A stretch of DNA of 44,952 nucleotides from Seison nebaliae (Eukaryota), in contig JALJEE010001395.1 of assembly GCA_023231475.1 (NCBI GenBank), positions 1 through 44,952 of the forward strand, given 5' to 3'. The notes under the pieces were generated by a model. The model saw only the letters and a list, made by a program, of their open reading frames with translations, had not been told where the DNA came from and did not search any database. Positions 3,090 to 43,203 of this stretch are shown in pieces (position 1 is the stretch's first letter; every line of letters starts with the position of its first letter). Made by a program: the position numbers and the translations under genes.

Positions 3090-3783
3090 AAATAAGAAAT
3101 TCTATTTTAACATCAACTGAAGAAAATGGATGACATTTTCATAGATCAATTGCCGTTGGAGAATGTAACGATTTATTCATCATCAGCTGAATTAAAAAAG
3201 TTTATACATCGAAAGTTTTGGAGAAGGGAATTACAAAAATTCGATTTGGTAAATTTCCTCAACAATGTAATATCAATTCAACGAGGTTAGTTACTAATTT
3301 TATGTCCTTCCATCTGGTTAGATGACCTTCCATCCTTTCCAAAGCTAAGGAAAAAAACATTTCCTTCGAGGCATCAAAAATCCTTAAAAAAAGAAATCGA
3401 TAAATATGATGGTTATTGTCCGAACGAAAAATCATATCTCGATTTTTGGAATAAGTCACCCAATTTAAACCAACTATCTAAAGTTACACAAATTGTAATT
3501 GCCGTATCTGTAACTTCATTATCTTGTGAACAATTGTTCAGCTCATCCGAAAATGTATTTACGAAAAAACGATCAAATTTAACTGATAAAAATTTATCGC
3601 TTCTATCATTTCTACACAATAACAAATCTTCGATTATGAAAACTTTATAAATTACTATTTTTGATTTTGATAATATTTTCATTTACATTTTATTCCTTTT
3701 TTTGTATCTATATAAAAATTTTTATTCCTAATAAAATATATTTTTCCCCCTATCATAATTTTTCAACGAATATATTGTCCCTG
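3090..3783 (+). mobile_element. hAT transposon 3' remnant with C-terminal dimerisation domain (ORF 3126-3650, possible 36-bp intron 3286-3321)
   Basis: The plus strand reads EIDKY...LDFWNKSPNLNQLSKVTQIVIAVSVTSLSCEQLFSSSENVFTKKRSNLTDKNLSLLSFLHNN, the hATC pattern (W...L...ATS..SER.FS...R..L). It ends in TTGTCCCTG at 3783, a CAGGG-type terminus. Bases 3090-3135 are duplicated at about 1810-1855. Confidence 0.75.
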
Positions 3784-4352: not shown

Positions 4353-4843
4353 ATGCAATTTTTTATTTTCTTAATCAGCTTGTTTCTCCTAGGTTATTTT
4401 CTAAATAAAGTTCTTTCTTCTACTTACACCATGGTGTTTAGGTTCGAGTAATGCAGCTATTAGTAGTACTTGTATGAAATGCATCTGTAAAATTGAAAGT
4501 GGGTGTCGTGCTTTACCTTGTGCTTTTGATGTAAATTCATTATCCTGTGGATATTATCAAATAAAGGAAGCTTACTGGATTGATTGTGGACGACCTGGTG
4601 GTTCATGGAAATCTTGTTCTCTCAGTAAAAGCTGTGCAGACTCTTGTGTCAAAAAATATATGGCTCGATATGGTTAATAAACTTTTAATTCTTTCTGATT
4701 TAAATTTTTCGATTTTAGGTACATTCTGTACTAAGGGACGAACACCAACTTGTAGCGATTATGCTAGAATCCATAATGGAGGACCATACGGATGTCGTTC
4801 ATCTGCTACATTAGGATATGCCAACAAAGTCAAACATTGTTAA
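4353..4843 (+). CDS. Invertebrate-type (i-type/destabilase) lysozyme, 131 aa; exons 4353-4392, 4442-4672, 4719-4843
   Basis: Signal peptide MQFFIFLISLFLLGSSNA. Family motifs CMKCICKIESGC, DVNSLSCGYYQIKEAYWIDCG, CVKKYMARY and ARIHNGGPYGC. Two GT-AG introns (49 and 46 bp) restore the frame. Confidence 0.95.
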
Positions 4844-5016: not shown

Positions 5017-5432
5017 TCAGCATTTGGTGAATGAGGCGCGATCAATTGACAAAAATGAACGTTGTGTACATAAGGAAATGGTTTCCAACGAGTATAGTGG
5101 AAAAACTAAACTCTTAAAAAATTTTGGACGTAATTTTAAAGGAACGAATTTCGTCTTGGGAGAGAAAGAGAAAAATGATCTGCATAATTTGTTTCGAATG
5201 TGATCCAAGGCGAAAGAGGAGAGACAACGGAGATCGATGGTTGAACCAAGAAAGATAGTTGAGGATTTAAGCAGAATTGAGGAGAAAGAACGCTTGCCTG
5301 TTCATAATAGGAGGGATTTATGGATACCCCCATCTGGGAGAGAAGAAAAGATAATTGTCGATATGACCGTTTCAGATGACGGAGAGAACGGTCTACGATC
5401 ACGATGTCATCTGCATAAACCATAACATCCAA
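5017..5432 (-). mobile_element. Non-LTR retroelement RT fragment (YADD through thumb), frameshifted
   Basis: VMVYADDIVIV...LSQMGVSINPS, then FKSLVFPLYSLE, which is homologous to FRSLVLPLYSLE near 16075. Confidence 0.8.
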
Positions 5433-5454
5433 GTAATTGAGTAGTATAACAATC

Positions 5455-5606
5455 GAGTATAACTCAAATTTAATAATTTTTTTATAAAAAAAAATAATCT
5501 ATAAGACTTAGTCGATATTGACTCAAAACTAACAAACTTGTAAGTTAGAAATTACACCCAAAGAATAAAATTGATAAAGTAATAAATAAAAGTAACAATC
5601 ATTCTT
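5455..5606. repeat. Inverted copy of the 2100-2254 repeat
   Basis: Reverse-complement match visible by eye. Confidence 0.9.
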
Positions 5607-6406
5607 CATTTCGATAATTTCTAATAAATTTTTAAGAGAGGTTATGAAATTTTCGGACAATCTAACTTTTCACAAATTTGGAATAAAAATAAGAATAATT
5701 ACCTCTATTTTTGCTCAATTGTCCGAAAATGTCGGAAAAATCTCTTGCTCAATTCCATAATCATGTTTTCTATAAAGCTTAATATCACGGACAAAATTTC
5801 GTCCTTTAACAACTCTGTATTTTGTAACTCCGTATTAAACTTTTCCTAACATTAAGAACAGGTCTCCGTGGTTTTATTTGTTGTTTTTTTCTCAACGTTC
5901 TATTAATTTCATGAAGGTTCCTGGCATCCTTTTTAAGCTTTGGGACAGTTTGTAATCTTCTAAAAAAGAAAGCACAGTTTTTAGCCTTACAGCATAATGA
6001 AAAGATAACAGTTAAAATAAAAGATTATATATTATAAAATAAAAACCATACTAGAAAGATTTCGATAACAGTTGTTAACCCATAATTAGAACAATTTTTA
6101 ATATTGTTTTTTATTTTTTTTCTAAGTAACCGAATATCTTTGGAATAACGGAAATATAAAATTGCTAAACAGTTATAAAAACAAACATAGATTAAAAACC
6201 ACAAGACATATCATAATTAGCAATGAATTGCTGAAAATTTCAAGAGAATTGGAATACAATTTTGTTTCGAAAACGAATAAATTAAATTTTAACTTTTCTT
6301 TTTTTTATATATTTTCAATTTTCATATTTTCTATCATTTGATGAAAGAGAAATTAAATAATTGAGATAAAATTGTTTAAAAAGCATTGTTGAAACAATTT
6401 CTCAAT

Positions 6407-15430: not shown

Positions 15431-15489
15431 AAGTGCGTGAATTTGAAGTAAATAAAAATTTCATTAATTAATTTATAAGAGTTATTTAT

Positions 15490-15790
15490 TATTATTTATT
15501 TATTAAAATTCCCGCCGGAATAAAGAAGAAAAAAAAATTTTATTGTCTCCGACATCAATTAAGCGTTGTAACTCCGCAAGAGATACTCGGTCTATTGGTA
15601 GAGATGATATCGGGTCGTATGACGAAATGAATATTGTGAAATAATCCATAATAACGGATAGTGTGAGAAAAGATGGAGTTGGAACGAAAGTAGTATGTAG
15701 CACTAGACTCCTGAGAATAGATAAACGAATTTTTAACGGAATAAATTTGGATTTTGCTATGAAACATTTAAATGAAACTATCCTTTACAT
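15490..15790 (-). mobile_element. 3' end of a non-LTR element, same family as 15791-16570 but opposite orientation
   Basis: FISSYDPISSLPIDRVSLAELQRLIDVGDNKIFFSSLF aligns with FISTYDSTSTLPINRDSLDQLRLFIDTEDDNNFFSLFF at about 16415-16563. The stop is followed by TAA/AATAAA-rich sequence. The inner boundary is approximate. Confidence 0.7.
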
Positions 15791-16570
15791 ATTCTCTTCC
15801 TTGATGCTACAAAGGCATTCGATTCCGTTAACGTTTCTTATGCTTTTGATTACCTTGTGTGTCAACTCGTCCCATATCCCATCCTCAGATTTCTCGCTCA
15901 TCTGTCCTGTAATTCCACTGGGTGTGTTGTTCACGATGACAGCTCCAGTACTGATTTCCAGATTAATTGAAGTCCGTCAAGGTACGATCCTTGGTCCATG
16001 GTTATTTGGTTTGGCTATCGACGGCGTCCTTCGCGAACTCGTCCTGTTAAAGATCCGTCTTTCACTATTACCTTTAGGAGCCTAGTGCTACCTTTGTATT
16101 CTTTGGAGATAATCTTTCTATGCTCTCATCGGTCTTTTCTGTCCTTGGACCGTGCTTATAATCGGCTCATTAGGAGAATGATCTGCTATTTTCATAGATG
16201 TAACCGTTGACTTCTTTTCGCCACTGTGAATAACCTACCACTTCCAATTATTCTATGTCGTCGTATTTTTTCACTCCCTGATAAATTTAACAATTTTGAC
16301 CTACTCTCTAGTCATACTTCCGATACCATCCTTTCCACACCCATTCCGTTTTCACATACACTGTCAGATACTACGGGTTATCTCCAAACATTTCTCTAAC
16401 CGATTTTTAAAATTTCATCTCAACATACGATTCCACCTCAACTCTACCTATTAACCGCGATTCCCTCGATCAATTACGCCTTTTTATTGATACAGAGGAT
16501 GACAATAATTTTTTTTCTCTTTTTTTCAAGTTTATCCTGACGGGAATTTTCACCAATAAATAATAATATT
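15791..16570 (+). mobile_element. Internally deleted non-LTR RT element
   Basis: The RT motif EVRQGTILGPWLFGLAIDGVL jumps directly to the thumb region (FRSLVLPLYSLE), so the YADD region is missing. The ORF C-terminus ends at 16563. Confidence 0.8.
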
Positions 16571-16784
16571 TTTTTTTTTATTATTCGGAATCCCCTCGGG
16601 ACAAAGAATATAGAAATTGAGAAATGTTAGCAAAATTATTTGACGATACAAGCTCACGACCACGAGGTAGTAACCCCACAAGATGAGGAGGTACAAAATC
16701 GTTGATGTTGAAATTCTGAAGCAGACTATTCATCGAAGAAATAGATGATGGGTAATCCATATCATAATCATAAAGAAAACTCAA
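16571..16784 (-). other. Possible 3' end of another retroposed sequence with an A-tail
   Basis: A 67-codon open frame ends TAATAA plus an A-run, tail-to-tail with the RT element. AATCCCCTCGGG is shared with a degenerate stretch near 14186. Confidence 0.3.
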
Positions 16785-16843
16785 ATATGATGTTTAAAAA
16801 GAATTTATTTATTGTTGATTTTTATTAAGTTTATTAACAAGTT

Positions 16844-17152
16844 TCATAACATAATTATAATGTTCACGTATTTCCTTCGAATTTTCGGGTTTCCCAGTAT
16901 CATCCATTCGCGGTGTAATAATGATGTTGGTTCCTGGCTCAACACCTGAACAAAGAAAATATCGAAAACTTTAATGTAGAAATAACTTGTAATATCTGTT
17001 GGAACTTCATTGTAATCGGGATTAGCATCTTTTCCCTCATTAATGACGAACAATATGAATGTTGAAAGAAATAAAGTTGAGATAAACATAATAATAGTGG
17101 TCAAATCAAGTTTTGTTTCTTTTCTACTTTTCTCTTTATTTTTATCCGTCAT
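16844..17152 (-). CDS. Uncharacterised single-pass membrane protein, 102 aa
   Basis: Basic N-terminus and one TM segment (TTIIMFISTLFLSTFILFVI). Several AATAAA follow the stop on the minus strand. Confidence 0.5.
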   Translation of the reverse strand: MTDKNKEKSRKETKLDLTTIIMFISTLFLSTFILFVINEGKDANPDYNEVPTDITSYFYIKVFDIFFVQVLSQEPTSLLHREWMILGNPKIRRKYVNIIIML

Positions 17153-17156
17153 TCGA

Positions 17157-17531
17157 ATGAAATCATTTCTAATTTTCCTCTTTAGCCCAATATTACAAGC
17201 CTTTCGCCTTAATCAAGAATTTGGGACGACATTGAAAATGATGCATTCACCTTCATTAGCCGACATACATGGTATGTTAGAGACGCCACCATTTCAAGAA
17301 CCTAATGAAGTAGATTTGATCGACGAAATTAAAGAATTTCAGTTCAATTTAAATTTAGCCGTTTAAAATATAAAATTTTATGCACAATATTTTAGAAAGC
17401 ATAAGGACTTGAGTAAAAATACAAAGAAAATAACTAATGTATTACAAGATAATGGTGAACATGAGAATAAAAAAAGAAAGAGAAAACTATCAAAAAGAAT
17501 TCGAGTACAACCCAAATTTGAAATTGATTGA
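17157..17531 (+). CDS. Small secreted orphan protein, 106 aa; exons 17157-17341, 17396-17531; probable paralogue of 14827-15430
   Basis: Signal-like MKSFLIFLFSPILQA and a 54-bp GTT-AG intron. It ends KKRKRKLSKRIRVQPKFEID. Confidence 0.6.
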
Positions 17532-17842
17532 CTTGTTATAATAAGAATCGTTCGATCCTTAAATATAAACAATTATTAAAATTGTGTAAATGCAAGAATG
17601 AAATTTTATTCTATTTTCCAGATAACATAAGTTACTATACAGAATATATACTAACAAGGGAATGCTTCGCTCCTATTTCCTCTGAATAAGTACAAAAATT
17701 TAGACAATTTAATTTAGATGTTAAAAATAATACAGAACAAAATAGGATCTTCATTTTTTGCGTAAGAAAAAAATTGTGCAAAATAACTTATAAAATGCAT
17801 ATATGATCTATAAATACATTTATGATGATATGTATGTAAGTT

Positions 17843-19309
17843 TCAGGTTGTGTTCTTTCCACTTTTGGTAACCGTGGATTCAAGATTTAAACCAGAAATA
17901 TTTTCTATTACATCGTTAATTGGTTTTGTAGATAGCAATTCGTAATTTTCCTTTTCAATCTTTTCTAATACAACGGCCTCAACAATTTCGTTTTCAATCA
18001 TAACGCTGAAACGTTCAATGTCATCAATTTGAAATGATTGATCGTCGTTCATACAATACCATATTCCATCTTTGGAGATAACGGATAAAGAATGTACCCG
18101 ATGAGTATTTTCCATCAATTTTGTGTATAATTCTCCCTTATTCAATAATTCTCGACAAAGGCCATTGAATTGGTCTTCGTAATCAATTAGATATTTATTT
18201 AAAATTCTTGGAATGATACTATTGTTACGATGATGAATATAGTTCAGAGTTTTTTGACGAATGTTTTCAACACATTCAGTGATTTCTTTGTTCTTAGTGT
18301 AAGATATCGGAATCTCTTTGAGATTAATCTCAGCTTCATTGTATAAATTTATGGAGAGGGCTTTTAACTGATACTGACGATTTTGTTGTTCTATAGGGAA
18401 TGGATATAATAATATATTTCTATTTATTCTAGGAACTGTAAATAATTGTCGATTAAGGAAAATTGAGAAATCCGGGTATGGTAAATCATTATAATCTTCT
18501 AGAATCATAATTGTTAGAAATTCGACAAACATTAGATATGTACGGTCATGTAACTTTATGCCAGGTTCATATTCAAATCCCAAGTGAATAACTTCCACAT
18601 CATCGTAAGTGTATTTGATTTTGTGACTTATTGCTCCAATAGTCTCATCGCCAATAAAGTTAAGATAAGTTGGTAAGAACGGATGAATATCCAAATAATT
18701 ATGGACTCCCTTTACTGAAACAAATTCTACATTTAAAACTTTTAAATTGGGATAATAAATACTTAGAAATTTTTCTTCCAACACTTCTCGATAAACACCA
18801 TCAAGCAAATCAACAACTAGAACATGAAACCTAAATAATGGTGATGTATAAGTCGTCATCTGTTGATCAATTTCATCATATGGATATTTCCTATCAAATG
18901 TTAATTCTTTTTCTTTAATTGCTTTAAATAAACAATATTGACCACTAAGGCCATATTTACTTTGGTAAGTTATATTTTGATCTATTGTACATAGACCATC
19001 CACTAAAATGTTAGATAATATATTATTCTCAATTGGAGGAAGCAAATCTGTTTTATATTCAACAAATTCAAGTACTTTACTTCTCCCGTCATAAAACCGA
19101 TTTGAACATGCATTTCGTTTTTCTCGAACTATCTCCATTAACCATCTACTAGACATAATCAAACCAAATACAACATTTGTTCCGCATATACCTAACATGG
19201 CATCATTAAAAAAACCAGCTACTTTTTTGTTCGAATTATGCGCCATCAGTGAAAGAATATTTCGCCGATCTGCCATAAGTAATGGTTTATATGTTGGAAA
19301 TAAATCCAT
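17843..19309 (-). CDS. Divergent USP-like (peptidase C19 fold) cysteine protease, 488 aa, intronless
   Basis: Cys-box-like GFFNDAMLGICGTNVVFGLI, then LPYPDFSIFLNRQ and YQLKALSI, and His-box-like VHSLSVISKDGIWYCMNDD. The gene itself is secure (long ORF, clear paralogue at 20050); the family call rests on motif patterns only. Confidence 0.7.
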   Translation of the reverse strand: MDLFPTYKPLLMADRRNILSLMAHNSNKKVAGFFNDAMLGICGTNVVFGLIMSSRWLMEIVREKRNACSNRFYDGRSKVLEFVEYKTDLLPPIENNILSNILVDGLCTIDQNITYQSKYGLSGQYCLFKAIKEKELTFDRKYPYDEIDQQMTTYTSPLFRFHVLVVDLLDGVYREVLEEKFLSIYYPNLKVLNVEFVSVKGVHNYLDIHPFLPTYLNFIGDETIGAISHKIKYTYDDVEVIHLGFEYEPGIKLHDRTYLMFVEFLTIMILEDYNDLPYPDFSIFLNRQLFTVPRINRNILLYPFPIEQQNRQYQLKALSINLYNEAEINLKEIPISYTKNKEITECVENIRQKTLNYIHHRNNSIIPRILNKYLIDYEDQFNGLCRELLNKGELYTKLMENTHRVHSLSVISKDGIWYCMNDDQSFQIDDIERFSVMIENEIVEAVVLEKIEKENYELLSTKPINDVIENISGLNLESTVTKSGKNTT

Positions 19310-20049
19310 TTTATAATAACAAGGTAAAGCAAAAAATTAAAAAGGTAAATTCAACATATGAAAACCACACTGTCCTTTTTTGAAGGAAAAACCAGAAGGA
19401 GTAGAACTGTCTCCCATTCAGTCAGAGATTAAGATTTAACCGATTGAATTTTTATACGTACAACTTCCTAGGACGTCGAATTATTTGAACGTAATAAACT
19501 TTTTAATAATACAAATAATTAACTGATTAATATATTTACTTGTATATAATATTATCAATAATCGCTTAAATTAAATGATAATTTCATTCTTAATAGAGAG
19601 GGAAATAATAATAATAATAATGATAATAAAATAATAATAATAAAGTTATAAAAATAACATTGTGTGCTAATTATGAAGGAAAGGGTAAAATCTCTATTCT
19701 CTCTATAAACCAACGAAATAAACATTTTAGAGTTACATTTTTTTCTTGTCTTTTTGGGTTACATTTGAGTTACTTTCTGTTAAATTAACAGTTGATTCAA
19801 CAGAACAGTAATCGAATTTGTAACGTTACAATTTATCAAATCTTGTATGCTAGGGTTGAAACTTGAATGTCTTTGTTATATAACAACATCTTGACATAAG
19901 CCAAAGCCAAGGACTAAGAAACATGGTTTGGAACATGGAATCGAAAGATTTATGAGGCAGTAGATTAGTTAGACAAGAAGTTAAATTAATCCGTTTTTAG
20001 TTTACTGTTTTTGTGTCTTTGGTTTAATTTTACCATTTTTAATAGCATC

Positions 20050-21465
20050 ATGGACATGATTCATCTTTTCAAACAGTCATTAATGAATGACAGAAGATCA
20101 CTCCTTACTTTCTTTTCCAGAACATTCAATTATAAGAAAATAGCAGGATTTTATAATGATGAAGAGCTTGGTATATGTTCTACAAATGTTTTATTAGGAT
20201 TGATAATGTGCAGTCCCACTCTCATGAATATAGTTGAATGTAAAAGTAAATCATATCCAGCTACTTTCTTCAAAGATATGGAATGTTTAAGAGAATATAT
20301 TGAGGGTATTAATAATACAACAACCCCATCAGAATTAACACTTGGCCAAGTTTTATCGGAAGGAATTTGTCAGACAGCGAACAATAAAACCTATAGTAGT
20401 AAATATGGATTAGCAGGAGATTATTGTCTACTTAAGGCATATAAAGACCAGAAATCTACCTGGGATTATACTTATATATACCATAATATAAGAGACTATG
20501 AAACATTGTTTCCTTCATCCTTCTTTAGATTTCAAAGATTACTTAAAGATCTACTAGAAAAACGTTATATAAAATCATATAAGACAACTTATAAATATGA
20601 TTATTTTTCCGGATTAAGAATTTTAAATATAGAATTCCCCCTAATCAACGTGCAGTATGATTACATGGAAAGCAAGAAATTTTTACCTAACTCATATTAC
20701 TCTGATGTTGGAAATAATGTTATCAATAATCTTCGTGTGTTGTTTAAAACAAAGAACGTCGATCCTTTAGTTATACATATGGGTTTTACAGAAAGTGAGA
20801 ACCTAAAGATTCATCCACGGACATATGTAGCATTTATGGAATTCCTAGAAAGCATAAACTATACACTCTTTCAAGAATTACCAAAACCTAAATTTCTAAT
20901 TCATTTAACTACTCAACTGTTATCAATTCCAAAATTAAAAGCTAATAGTCTCTTTTATCCATTTCCTGTTGGTAATGGAACCTGCGATACTTTATTCCAA
21001 TTGACAGGTTTTTCCCTCAGAATGGTCAATGAAGTAAGTATTAATTTGGATAATGTAATTCCTAAAACACATCTAACTTACAAAATAGCGAAATGCGTTT
21101 CAAGGTTTAAAACAAAAAGTTTAATGCAATTTAATGGAGTGGAAGGGTTAGCAGCGAGACTTATAGGTATGTACATGCGGCAACATTATGCTTACTTTCG
21201 AGGTCTGTGTTTTTCATTACTGCACGTTGAAGAATATTATGAATGCATTAAGGATCGTCAAGATGATATGCATACTTTAGCAGTTATTTTAAGAGGAAAA
21301 CATTGGTTCATTATGAACGATGATGATTCTTTTCAAGTGAATGATATAAATAAATTAACGGAAATGTTAGGAGATGAACGAATGGATGCCGTTATTTTGG
21401 AAAGAAATGTAAAACATAATGGTCAAGAACATTTCTATGATAAATTGCGAAAATTGGTTCTTTAA
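20050..21465 (+). CDS. Divergent USP-like cysteine protease paralogue, 471 aa from ATG 20050, intronless
   Basis: GFYNDEELGICSTNVLLGLI, LPKPKFLIHLTTQ, FQLTGFSL, MHTLAVILRGKHWFIMNDD and AVILER. Colinear with 17843-19309. Confidence 0.7.
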   Translation: MDMIHLFKQSLMNDRRSLLTFFSRTFNYKKIAGFYNDEELGICSTNVLLGLIMCSPTLMNIVECKSKSYPATFFKDMECLREYIEGINNTTTPSELTLGQVLSEGICQTANNKTYSSKYGLAGDYCLLKAYKDQKSTWDYTYIYHNIRDYETLFPSSFFRFQRLLKDLLEKRYIKSYKTTYKYDYFSGLRILNIEFPLINVQYDYMESKKFLPNSYYSDVGNNVINNLRVLFKTKNVDPLVIHMGFTESENLKIHPRTYVAFMEFLESINYTLFQELPKPKFLIHLTTQLLSIPKLKANSLFYPFPVGNGTCDTLFQLTGFSLRMVNEVSINLDNVIPKTHLTYKIAKCVSRFKTKSLMQFNGVEGLAARLIGMYMRQHYAYFRGLCFSLLHVEEYYECIKDRQDDMHTLAVILRGKHWFIMNDDDSFQVNDINKLTEMLGDERMDAVILERNVKHNGQEHFYDKLRKLVL

Positions 21466-21551: not shown

Positions 21552-21987
21552 ATCAGCAAAGCGACATTAGGTAGAGCGAACGTTGGGTAGAACGACCGTT
21601 TGGTAGACAGACACTTGATAAACCGGCCATTTGGTAGACGACCTATATAAAATACAGTTATGTATATATTTTTGGTATTTTCTTTTTTGACATTAAAATT
21701 ACTCGAAATTTTAGATTATTTTTATTTTATTTATTAAAAAACAATTTATTCTTAAATTTAAAGAATGGAGAGAATTGTTGAGTGATTCGGAGAACTTGTT
21801 GCTAAATACCAAATTGTAAATTATAATCTTTTTAAATAATCCAAAAATTTGGTGTAATTTCAATGTCAAAAAACGAAAATATCAAAAATATATACATGAC
21901 TTTATTTTAATATGGAGTCTTAAAAGGTCGATCTACCAAACAGTCGATATGACAAATAGTCCCGTCTACCAAACGTCCTAGACTGAT
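21552..21987. mobile_element. Foldback/MITE-like element with ~150-bp imperfect inverted arms and TTTGGTAGAC subrepeats
   Basis: About 21580-21722 is the reverse complement of about 21833-21980 (for example TGTATATATTTTTGGTATTTTC versus GAAAATATCAAAAATATATACA). Confidence 0.8.
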
Positions 21988-22607
21988 TTTTTATCCCATT
22001 CACTGACATGTTAACCAAATTCCTGAACAAATAGTTTATAATTGACTTCGTAAGTAAAATAAGTTTTAAATTTTACTTCAATCCAGATAATGGAAAGATG
22101 GCAAAATTACGTAAGATATCAATAATGAATATTTAAGTGTGTGGGAAAGAGTAATTGTTTATTTTATTAAACAAAGGGATTTTATATAAAGGTAGTGAGA
22201 ACTTATGTCATGTTCGAAGAAAATGTAAAGATAACAGACTATTTAAATAACAAGTGAGTTGACAATAATGTAGTGAGCTGTGAGTTTATCTGTTACAAAT
22301 TAGTTATTTTCCCTTAATTGCTAATCTTTATACTAGTCGTTTTTACCGTTGAATATAATGCCAAAACATATTAAAATTTTAATTGATCTGTGACCAGATG
22401 CATATCCCAATATCTTACGGGAATGAATAGTTAGAATAACAACGCATAAAGGTTTGATGTCTTTTTTAATTATTTCGACGTTTTTCTCCCGGTCCAACAA
22501 CCTATCAAGGGTCTAAAATAGGTATTAGGTATTATTAAATTGCATATTCCCGCATCAAAGGAATATAAAAGATATGAGGAAAATCAGAACTGATACTAGG
22601 TATGGGG

Positions 22608-22872
22608 GACAGACAATTCGGAGACTCGACAATTCGGAGATGCGACAATTCGGAGACCGACAATTATATGCAGGGTTAAATGGGGGTGCAAAAATTTCCC
22701 TTTTTTAATAGGTTAAATGGGAGTGCAAAAATTGTTAAATGCAAATTTGACAATACTAGATTACAATTCAGCTTTTATTTTTGAAAACACAACTCCTACA
22801 TCACAATGCTTCCGAATATTGGGTCTCCGAATCGGCACGTCTCCGAATTGTCGAGTCTCCGAATTGTCTGTC
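22608..22872. mobile_element. MITE with perfect 33-bp TIRs built from 16-bp subrepeats
   Basis: GACAGACAATTCGGAGACTCGACAATTCGGAGA (22608-22640) and its exact reverse complement (22840-22872). An internal direct repeat reads GGTTAAATGGG(G/A)GTGCAAAAATT. Confidence 0.9.
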
Positions 22873-37457: not shown

Positions 37458-39668
37458 TTATGAGATGTGATTATCTAATGTATCAACCATCTTCAACGAT
37501 TTATCTTCCGATCTTCGTCTTTTCAACGAATTCCCTTGACTCTCATGAATAATATCGTTCTCCAATAAATCTGTTTCGGATGATAAAGTCGAAGAGATTG
37601 TTGAGTCATTGGAATCTGAGGATGATTCATTCGAATCAGATGATGAAGCATCGGATGATGATGATGATGAACATGATGACGATGAGGATGATCGTGTTGC
37701 TGATGAAACATCAGAATAATCAATAATTTCGTCAATTCGTCTTATATCAGATGAGTCAGTTGCCACTCTATTTTCTCTCGAAGATGATTCTTCTTCTGGT
37801 GATGATTCATTTTCTTTTAATGATTCCCCAAGATCATCATCGACTGTACTCTTTACTTTTCCAGATGGTAAATTAGTGAAACGGAATAAATTAGTTAATT
37901 TATCTTTACTCATTTGAACAGAAGATTGTGTTGTCGTCATTTCTTTTGATGATGTACTCTCAGTCTCTTGATACATGGAGAAGGAGTCGTATATTGACTT
38001 TAATGATTCAATAGAATATTCTTGCAGAATGGTTATCTTATCAATCGATACATAGAAGAGAACACAGGAAGAACAAAGTACAATATAACGATTCTTGTCT
38101 AATAATTGTGGTATTTTCTTCTTCATATTTGGTTGGACGACAATGTGACATTCTTTCGTTATAAAAAGAATATTGAATACTTCTGATTCACAAATTAAAC
38201 AGAAATTGGCTGGATCTCCTTTCTCTCTGATTTGTTTTTTGATTGGAATGTTGGCACTTCGCCCAATAGATAAACATTCTAATGAATGTTTTAAAGATAC
38301 GTAAAGAATATATTTGAGCATTAAATATAATTGCATATCTGAAATGAAAAAATCAGTTGCTGCTGCCCAACATAATTGAATCATTGGAACTATTGATTTG
38401 TAATTGAAGTTACGATTAAATTCATATCGTTCAACTGAGACAAATAACTGGCGAAATGAGAATGGTGCAACATTCCATGCAATATTGTTACACCAACCGT
38501 TAGCTTGAACCCAATGAACACATCCACTATTTATCCATACTAAATCACCTGGTCGCTGGACGAAATGTACAACGGGAATCTTTTCCTCTTCCAACTCCTT
38601 CACATTTGGCCACCACGACCCCGACAAATAATCAATTTTCCTCTCGTTACACATGCGACAAATGGCTGGCCAAAACTCGAAAGGAATTGCAAACCATTCA
38701 CAATCACCAGGACCAGCATTGACATTAACTGCACAACAATTTAAATTTTCCTGGTGAGCCGGTGTCCTCGATCCAGGAACTTTCATGTATAATTGAAGAG
38801 AATTCATTCCGAGAACTGTGTGGTCCAAATGAGATAATAAATTCGATTCATGAAATAATCGTAAAAATGAAGGTAATTTTTGAATTTCGTCTAATTGTCT
38901 TCCCCATGTCTTTCCATCCGACAAATCGACATTAGTCCCAAATTTTAACCATTTCACATTCTCAGATTCATCAGAATTGTTATTCGACTCAGTTTCGGTT
39001 GTGGAATTTTTCTGTCGATTTCTTTTCATTTGTAAAAATTCGAGAAGAGAACAAGATTGGTAAGAAGAATATTTTTCGATTGTCGACATTGTTCGTGAAC
39101 TGTCGCAATGCCAACGATCTTTAATGAGTTCTTCGTTTGAGTTAAAAGAAAAATTTATATTTCCACGTTGCTTTATCTGATGTCGTACTTCCAAATGTTG
39201 CTGTGGTGCATTTTTCAGGAGTGATTTTGTTGAAAATAATTCCAAATCGATATTACAATGTTCTATCAAATTCTTAACTATACACATTTCTAAATTTAAT
39301 AATTTCTTTTGGAGAATATTGGAATAGACATCTTTTTTCTTTTCAATGAACAAAACCGGACAATTATCATATAAAGATATTTTATTCTTTCCAGATGTTT
39401 GATTATATGAATTAAATTTTTTGTTAATCAACGGTTCTTCTTTCTTCGGCAATAGAACTGAAGGTAATATTCGTAACGTTGGAAATTTGATATGTTGCAA
39501 ATTTTCTAATAATTCTGCCTCTCCAGTTGTCGTGGACAATTCATCAAGAAATCCTACAAATTGCTTATGTTCCTGTTCAATTATTCGATCGATTTCAGTC
39601 GATTTTTTTGGCGATAGAAACAAGTTTATTAATCTCCTTTGAAATTTCTTTAAATCTCTCTCGTCCAT
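37458..39668 (-). CDS. KDM6-family (UTX/JMJD3) H3K27 demethylase, 736 aa, intronless, no TPR region
   Basis: KFGTNVDLSD, GMNSLQLYMKVPGSRTPAHQEN (HxE), NAGPGDCEWF, GSWWP, QRPGDLVWINSGCVHWVQANGWCNNIAWNV and a Zn-binding CLIC...CSSC, followed by a Ser/acidic tail. Confidence 0.95.
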   Translation of the reverse strand: MDERDLKKFQRRLINLFLSPKKSTEIDRIIEQEHKQFVGFLDELSTTTGEAELLENLQHIKFPTLRILPSVLLPKKEEPLINKKFNSYNQTSGKNKISLYDNCPVLFIEKKKDVYSNILQKKLLNLEMCIVKNLIEHCNIDLELFSTKSLLKNAPQQHLEVRHQIKQRGNINFSFNSNEELIKDRWHCDSSRTMSTIEKYSSYQSCSLLEFLQMKRNRQKNSTTETESNNNSDESENVKWLKFGTNVDLSDGKTWGRQLDEIQKLPSFLRLFHESNLLSHLDHTVLGMNSLQLYMKVPGSRTPAHQENLNCCAVNVNAGPGDCEWFAIPFEFWPAICRMCNERKIDYLSGSWWPNVKELEEEKIPVVHFVQRPGDLVWINSGCVHWVQANGWCNNIAWNVAPFSFRQLFVSVERYEFNRNFNYKSIVPMIQLCWAAATDFFISDMQLYLMLKYILYVSLKHSLECLSIGRSANIPIKKQIREKGDPANFCLICESEVFNILFITKECHIVVQPNMKKKIPQLLDKNRYIVLCSSCVLFYVSIDKITILQEYSIESLKSIYDSFSMYQETESTSSKEMTTTQSSVQMSKDKLTNLFRFTNLPSGKVKSTVDDDLGESLKENESSPEEESSSRENRVATDSSDIRRIDEIIDYSDVSSATRSSSSSSCSSSSSSDASSSDSNESSSDSNDSTISSTLSSETDLLENDIIHESQGNSLKRRRSEDKSLKMVDTLDNHIS

Positions 39669-42739: not shown

Positions 42740-43160
42740 GCGTCTTCAAAAAGATTTTGGTCTTACTTTGTCAGTTCTATTCGTCCAGGTTCAATGCAGA
42801 GAAGATATGACCGTGGAGCACATACGTGTCTGGCCATCGTGAGGTCACTGATATATTATCAGAGACAAACGAACCGCCCCTTCATATACCTTTCCTAGAC
42901 GCATCAAGAGTGTTCGACTCCATTATGTATTTCATCCATCTATATCCTGCTCTCCTTTGTTTACGTTCTCGCGTGATTCATCATTCGATACTCTCATTTA
43001 TAATAACGATGTGTTCACATTCATTATGTTCAGTTTCGCCGAAAAACTTCCAGCCCTCTCCTTTCCAAGTAAATCGGGCAGTCCATCAAGGATCGATCCT
43101 TGGAACGTGGCTCTTTGGGCTTGCTCTCGATTCCGCAATTGGCTTAATTAATTCCAATTT
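42740..43160 (+). mobile_element. Non-LTR RT fragment (N-terminal RT motifs), same family as the 5.0-kb and 15.8-kb pieces
   Basis: PFLDASRVFDSI (LD..KAFD motif) and FQVNRAVHQGSILGTWLFGLALD, matching QGTILGPWLFGLAID near 15978. Confidence 0.8.
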
Positions 43161-43203
43161 AATGATTAATAGTTCGCGAGTTCCACCAGCATAAGCGGGG
43201 GTC

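Follow-up and report, generated by a model that had tools for sequence, protein, structure and literature searches.

Contig JALJEE010001395.1 of the Seison nebaliae genome assembly (GCA_023231475.1) was analyzed over positions 1 to 44,952 of its forward strand, a stretch of 44,952 nucleotides that we refer to as the window. Seison is a tiny marine animal living on crustaceans, and the window has the character of an AT-rich animal contig with ordinary genes. It also holds two open reading frames (ORFs), each predicted to encode a protease with the fold of the ubiquitin-specific proteases (USPs): ORF A on the reverse strand (17843..19309, 488 amino acids [aa]) and ORF B on the forward strand (20050..21465, 471 aa), the latter being the sequence used for structure modeling. 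Their start codons are separated by a 740-bp spacer (19310..20049), a possible promoter region common to both genes.

A first-pass annotation, made from the sequence alone, had described two intact, divergent and colinear paralogous ORFs without accessory domains, and this description holds on all counts, the two proteins being 35% identical over 459 columns (BLASTP, E 1e-91). Every motif that it listed is found in the right order in both proteins, namely (starts given as ORF A/ORF B) GF[FY]ND at 32/33, LGIC with C42/C43, LP.P.F at 276/277, [YF]QL at 313/316, H[ST]L at 406/408 and W[YF].MNDD at 417/419. The uninterrupted frame of ORF A is identical, letter for letter, to the annotated protein P0002, which supports a single coding exon; the exact sequence of ORF B was not found in the protein collection where ORF A occurs. 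In assemblies of sequencing runs, ORF A lies inside one 1896-nt piece with a depth of 26.6, compared with 27.3 and 29.8 in its flanks (run X1). That piece does not reach the neighboring genes, and cover of ORF B is almost nil, which proves nothing; between 0.94 and 0.97 of the word content of the stretch holding both genes is present in five sequencing runs. The two genes are near saturation, with 18 of 37 four-fold sites alike and identities of 0.48, 0.61, and 0.41 at the three codon positions.

A Seison family of diverged paralogs

ORF A and ORF B are members of an unnamed gene family, highly diverged and with 22 or more complete copies, so far found in Seison only. Single-sequence searches returned one relative, P0001, an S. 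nebaliae hypothetical protein 55% identical to ORF B. A profile of three rows (ORF A, ORF B, and P0001), searched over 1.84 billion representative proteins, returned 42 proteins at E ≤ 0.001, mostly 450–495 aa long. Names were available for 22 of the 41 hits other than ORF A, and all 22, the two weakest hits included, carry the name of S. nebaliae hypothetical proteins; their contigs have 20 different lengths, which makes for 20 or more contigs. The earlier suggestions that the family is lineage-specific and that standard annotation would call its members hypothetical are thus supported, the former as far as searched: the only exhaustive search used the three-row profile, which remote members in other animals could escape, and a word-based search with a 38-row profile recovered only two members, both already known, and is not informative on range. 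No relatives were found in viral, metagenome or GTDB contigs (queried with the three-row alignment) or in phages (queried with ORF B). Searching the PDB by sequence gave nothing usable for the family, as did the ESM Atlas, where the best match scored 0.81 and a herpes-tegument/OTU cluster 0.75. None of 38 members matches Pfam UCH (PF00443) at E ≤ 1; as a control, three viral USPs match it at 1e-35 to 1e-47. In the literature searched (main texts, with few subscription journals) we found no work linking Seison with deubiquitinases (DUBs) or ubiquitin-specific proteases, and no described expansion of divergent USPs of this kind; the word “ubiquitin” is absent from the main text of both Seison genome papers.

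The family alignment has 38 rows (P0005, P0006, P0012, P0043, and P0041 were left out), 22 of which span the Cys, His, and Asp positions discussed below; pairwise identities are 15–39%, with a median of 21%. The remaining rows are partial models, some perhaps fragments of one gene, and we therefore put the family size at 22 or more, perhaps about 40. The pooled Seison material is described as containing two lineages (PMC8351084), which could inflate the copy count, but orthologs above 50% identity would be merged by the clustering at that level. A few members form local pairs, with adjacent locus tags on contigs of equal length (P0036/P0038 and P0027/P0031), and the P0005 gene model holds a triplet of family copies. 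The P0006 and P0043 models are joined to a seven-transmembrane (7TM) and a START domain, respectively; all three composites are probably gene-model fusions or annotation merges. Likewise, the P0001, P0013, and P0042 models begin directly after the Cys helix, and their start codons are probably wrong. In a quick tree of the 38 rows, ORF B is sister to P0001 (Shimodaira–Hasegawa-like approximate likelihood ratio test [SH-aLRT] 100), while ORF A stands apart, inside a 12-row clade. ORF A and ORF B are not sister copies in this tree, which therefore indicates that the head-to-head pair is old rather than a recent inverted duplication.

Predicted fold and active site

AlphaFold2, run for ORF B on the 38-row alignment, gave a predicted local distance difference test score (pLDDT) of 90.2 and a predicted template modeling score (pTM) of 0.90, with the five models at pLDDT 87–90. 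A model built from the three-row alignment was discarded (pLDDT 34, no Foldseek match). Against the PDB, Foldseek returned 21 matches at E ≤ 0.001 (best E 7.5e-5, prob 1.00), and among the matches listed, to rank 50, all are USP, Ubp or PAN2 chains; against viral models, giant-virus USPs came out on top (best E 5.3e-5). VIA-align, which is independent of Foldseek and was run over 48,161 chains, placed USP-fold chains at all of ranks 1–36 (Z 16.0 to 9.8), so that model residues of about 28–455 cover the whole USP domain, Cys box and last strand included. Its best match was USP30 (Z 16.0, root-mean-square deviation [rmsd] 4.2, 235 residues aligned), followed by USP2 and USP35 (both 15.8), USP54 (15.7), USP12 (15.6), and PAN2 (15.4), with lower values for CYLD (12.8), USPL1 (12.1), and TssM (9.8); the next class after the USP fold, the coronavirus papain-like proteases (PLpro), reached Z ≤ 8.2. 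The top rows lie within 1 Z of each other and no single USP emerges as the parent. Viral tegument-like DUBs were considered as the nearest kind and rejected, their VIA-align Z being only 5.0.

A comparison independent of the model used a profile of 20 giant-virus USPs, drawn from 120 loci by motif and length filters, three of them confirmed by Pfam UCH. Twelve boxes from this profile, chained colinearly on the family profile, scored 90.2, compared with 62.3 ± 4.4 (maximum 77.0, n = 60) for column-shuffled, 66.4 ± 5.1 (maximum 79.5, n = 60) for block-shuffled, and 66.8 for reversed controls; the boxes were picked after the motifs were seen, and the result is supportive rather than blind. Several observations weigh against a USP assignment. 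The structural fit is loose, with template modeling scores (TM-scores) up to about 0.5 by target, identities of 7–16%, and rmsd values of 10–14 Å in the best Foldseek rows and 4–6 Å in VIA-align. By hhalign, the family resembles viral USPs weakly (P 0.019 and 0.0047, probability 2.5–7.4%), the QND box missed its expected helix in both box scans, and the lack of any Pfam UCH match points in the same direction. On the model and its structural matches we nevertheless regard a USP fold for these proteins as nearly certain, and the reading of both as USP-like is sustained at the level of fold prediction by AlphaFold2, Foldseek, and VIA-align, which converge on a USP-type thumb-palm architecture.

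Residues are numbered below as in ORF B, with counts in alignment rows. Two blocks hold the candidate catalytic residues. The Cys loop, running from N36 to C43 in ORF B (20155..20178, forward strand) and from N35, the likely oxyanion-hole residue, to C42, the likely nucleophile, in ORF A (19184..19207, reverse strand), keeps N36 in 25/27 rows and C43 and N46 each in 26/26. The His box (H408, W419, N423, and D424 in ORF B, 21271..21321, forward strand; H406, W417, N421, and D422 in ORF A, 18044..18094, reverse strand) keeps H408 in 31/33 rows, W419 in 32/33, N423 in 28/33, and D424 in 32/32. In the model, C43 starts the first core helix (43–54), H408 lies on strand 407–415, and W419..D424 fall at or after strand 418–422, the region onto which the W..fdD box of viral USPs maps (P 0.003). 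This arrangement matches the USP scheme as described, which places Cys in box 1 and both His and Asp/Asn toward the C-terminal end (PMC6462090). We consider C43-H408-N423 (or D424) the likely catalytic triad and N36 the likely oxyanion residue. As for the triad proposed in the first-pass annotation, its conservation is evident across the family: Cys, His, and Asp424 are all retained in 21 of 22 complete rows, and the remaining one, P0016, has Lys at the His position. Judged from this conservation, the family members are probably active proteases.

The regions through which canonical USPs hold their substrate appear altered. USPs are described as gripping ubiquitin through the fingers, blocking loop 1, and blocking loop 2 (PMC12037411). 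At the position of blocking loop 2 the model carries an insert of about 75 extra residues (about 328–404 of ORF B; 21031..21261, forward strand), modeled as four helices (344–360, 367–378, 380–391, and 394–403), in which two cysteines are invariant (C349 in 34/34 rows, C387 in 32/32). The spacing from the Y.L strand to His is 93 in ORF A, 92 in ORF B, and 88–108 in 22 rows, compared with 16 in all 20 viral USPs, a difference of about 76 that agrees with the roughly 80 extra residues noted earlier. The GHY motif is gone: the residue before His is V in 8 rows, I in 6, C in 5, T in 4, and L in 3 (of 33), and the residue after it is A, T, G or F. The Glu of the USP QxDxxEF box binds ubiquitin Arg72. 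No such motif was found in the family alignment, in which a GxxG[DEN]Y at 120–125 (D in 19 and E in 5 of 34 rows at 124) is a possible remnant by eye; the box scans placed the box elsewhere. A conserved zinc-knuckle CxxC is likewise lacking, being found in only 2 of 38 rows and in neither case in the fingers. The thumb has subfamily-specific sets of cysteines, one clade carrying them near B 64/69/85/107 and another near 74/83, with one more near 143 in 24/28 rows; these could be zinc sites or disulfides.

The LPxxL strand is less easily placed. The LP.P.F motif highlighted by the first-pass annotation is present in ORF A and ORF B, but its identification with the USP LPxxL box is doubtful, given that 7/32 and 10/32 rows retain its prolines and the motif is limited to the ORF A/ORF B side of the family, whereas P239 is kept in 32/33. 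The likely equivalent is the candidate strand after P239 (residues 238–246 of ORF B; 20761..20787, forward strand), which the joint scan picks; the rival candidate, residues 279–288, lies in the stretch that the single scan favors, 279–290 (8.5 vs 7.6). If strand 241–246 is the LPxxL strand, the gap after the helix would be 4 residues instead of about thirty, and the second finger hairpin would have been lost, as in CYLD.

Substrate, activity and origin

Compared with canonical USPs (USP30, USP2, USP35, USP12, and USP7), the family shares the predicted fold end to end (Z 15–16, 235–250 aligned residues), the order of Cys box, Y.L strand, His, W..ND, and last strand, and the positions of Cys, His, and Asn/Asp. 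It differs in its low identity to them (9–13%), in lacking a Pfam UCH match, GHY, a recognizable QxDxxEF, and the CxxC zinc sites of the fingers, in the long Y.L-to-His spacing (16 in viral members of C19), and in the absence of accessory domains in ORF A and ORF B. We class the family as USP-fold proteases and not as canonical PF00443 deubiquitinases. In USP53/54, seven residues separate the oxyanion Asn from Cys, in a longer Cys loop that is described as essential; the S1 site of these proteins is weak and their blocking loops are altered, yet they are active K63 DUBs (PMC12037411). The Seison family resembles them in the start of the domain at the N terminus, in altered blocking loops, and in an Asn-to-Cys spacing of seven (24/26 rows; five in the viral USP set, from the search pattern), and USP54 superposes with Z 15.7 and rmsd 4.0. 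In USP54 itself, blocking loop 2 is truncated and there are three zinc sites, whereas here that loop is enlarged by about 75 residues and no CxxC is conserved; identity in the structural alignment is 8%. CYLD and Burkholderia TssM, whose fingers are truncated or missing, also have a remodeled ubiquitin-binding surface without finger zinc, and loss of the second hairpin is likely here too if P239 marks LPxxL; TssM is described as cleaving ubiquitin without fingers (PMC10719079). They differ in their lower Z (12.8 and 9.8), in carrying inserts elsewhere, and in being single genes rather than expanded families.

The explanation that we favor, with moderate confidence, is that this is a Seison family with a predicted USP fold, likely active, whose substrate site has been rebuilt and which would remove ubiquitin or a ubiquitin-like tag; a substrate that is ubiquitin or a ubiquitin-like protein is likewise somewhat probable. 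By analogy with USP chemistry, H408, oriented by N423 (or D424), would activate C43, which would attack the (iso)peptide bond while N36 formed the oxyanion hole. With GHY and, as it appears, QxD lost, and with zinc-free fingers and a four-helix insert, the enzymes may bind a single ubiquitin weakly or else in an unfamiliar pose; the insert may set specificity for chain type or target protein, varying between paralogs. The family itself would have arisen by gene duplication within the lineage from an animal USP. Heavy remodeling is compatible with ubiquitin cleavage, because TssM and USP54 show it. A predicted complex of ORF A (1–455) with giant-virus ubiquitin scored 0.00 in two runs made without alignments and is uninformative either way.

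Other evidence points the other way. The Gly preceding the catalytic His has given way to bulky residues and the Tyr following it is gone, which speaks against the Gly-Gly tail taking its usual path, and together with the extreme divergence of the paralogs this loss weighs against a ubiquitin substrate. The proteins might instead be USP-fold proteases that have left the ubiquitin system. Each paralog would then cut proteins or peptides of other kinds, which might come from the crustacean host or its microbes, and the insert would act as a selecting cap; we hold this as the main, if tentative, alternative. It would account for the alteration of all ubiquitin-guiding motifs (GHY, the QxD box, blocking loop 2, and the zinc fingers) around near-invariant catalytic residues, and paralog identities of 15–39% would be more divergence than expected for enzymes acting on one invariant substrate. 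The two invariant insert cysteines and the subfamily cysteine sets could then be disulfides, and the family has multiplied in a genome noted for losing genes (PMC12256650). Against it, no signal-peptide-like N terminus was found in 24 of 26 rows (best 11-residue hydropathy below 1.0 within the first 30 residues), which makes classical secretion unlikely, and the most heavily remodeled of the solved USP folds with an intact active site, TssM and USP54, are described as still acting on ubiquitin. To our knowledge, the other solved USP-fold proteases with an intact active site among the structural matches all act on ubiquitin-like proteins. Doubtful, and a little less probable again, is a specific form of this alternative in which the some 40 paralogs are a fast-evolving non-ubiquitin battery, with the four-helix cap from blocking loop 2 picking separate targets, possibly crustacean-host proteins. 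It is very unlikely that the proteins are pseudo-enzymes, USP-fold scaffolds like the domain of PAN2 or USP39 that bind without cutting: the pseudo-hydrolase domains of PAN2 do score less than 1 Z below the top match, the cleft could be blocked by the large insert, and P0016 is a complete member with Lys for His, but few columns of the alignment are as well conserved as those of Cys, His, Asn/Asp, and the oxyanion Asn.

As to origin, we consider that the family probably derives from an animal USP, the simplest reading being expansion from one. USP53/54 is a lead for the parent, suggested by the Cys loop alone. The first-pass annotation had raised retroposition or lateral acquisition; in this alternative a virus, a transposon or a different organism would have been the source of the gene, which then spread. 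Such an origin would fit the single coding exon, the transposon remnants on both sides of the pair, the giant-virus USPs that score on par with cellular ones against the model, and the GC content at third codon positions of 0.23 (ORF A) and 0.24 (ORF B), just below that of all eight neighbors (0.27–0.34). However, exons as long or longer occur in the neighbors (the KDM6-like gene with 736 aa and the P5 ATPase with 1191 aa, in frames of 2.2 and 3.6 kb, with short introns), the codon-usage correlations of 0.81 and 0.75 fall inside the neighbors' range of 0.74–0.93, relatives were lacking in the viral, metagenome, GTDB, and phage collections, and no transposase or helicase domain was detected in any scanned member. 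The suggestion is thus not borne out, and we regard it as unlikely, noting that these exon, codon-usage, and relative traces would all be absent if the transfer were old. The USP17/DUB retrogene arrays of mammals are a parallel for the lineage-specific multiplication of a compact USP gene (PMC5381560), but USP17 copies stand in tandem repeats, whereas the Seison copies, 15–39% identical, are scattered across 20 or more contigs and include a few local pairs and one triplet. USP17 copies are ordinary USPs.

Counts of deubiquitinases per genome depend on sequence profiles, and here a family of at least 22 complete genes escapes Pfam, PDB sequence search, and a language-model atlas. Seison is described as having lost many genes (PMC12256650), and our findings suggest that the gene loss reported in such lineages is partly divergence beyond detection. 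For the predicted helical domain inside blocking loop 2, as a way to rebuild the USP cleft, we found no earlier description in the literature searched. These small single-domain enzymes form a panel for probing how far the USP fold strays from ubiquitin: if they cut ubiquitin, they may yield new linkage-specific tools, and if they do not, animals would have a USP-fold family that works apart from the ubiquitin system.

Other elements in the window

By Pfam, the neighbors of the gene pair include malate dehydrogenase, a tetraspanin-like protein, a P5 ATPase, phospholipase C beta, a KDM6-like protein, RPB7, and a Na/K-ATPase beta subunit; Rfam gave no match within the window. Near the pair, a short dispersed repeat (19369..19411), 60–100 bp upstream of ORF A, recurs on 10–16 other contigs per sequencing run. 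These contigs diverge loosely at both ends of the repeat, and in one of them two copies occur at a distance of 18 letters. Directly downstream of ORF A (16581–17572, reverse strand) lie small ORFs that resemble a spliced gene, with a single hydrophobic segment and with weak Pfam matches below the cut-off, and two elements with inverted arms that resemble miniature inverted-repeat transposable elements (MITEs) lie downstream of ORF B, at about 21565–21990 and 22608–22872. A high-copy element at 15487–16568 has 49-nt inverted ends, 82% complementary, and a summed depth up to about 70 times that of its flanks. Its broken frames, which have no Pfam match, resemble a reverse transcriptase in their motifs, and related fragments occur at 5136–5498 (RVT_1, E 0.0026) and about 42811–43194.

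The KDM6-like JmjC protein (37458–39668, reverse strand) is encoded in one frame of 736 aa and annotated as the exact sequence; it has C-helix and GATA-like domains, and no tetratricopeptide (TPR) repeats were detected in it with Pfam. An invertebrate-type lysozyme (destabilase) gene at 4405–4843 on the forward strand has two exons (E 8e-16 and 5e-7). It is flanked by inverted repeats (2095–2207 and 5508–5611, 95–100% complementary) and adjoined by a remnant of a hAT dimerization domain (3291–3650), and is possibly a host gene within a transposon-like unit.

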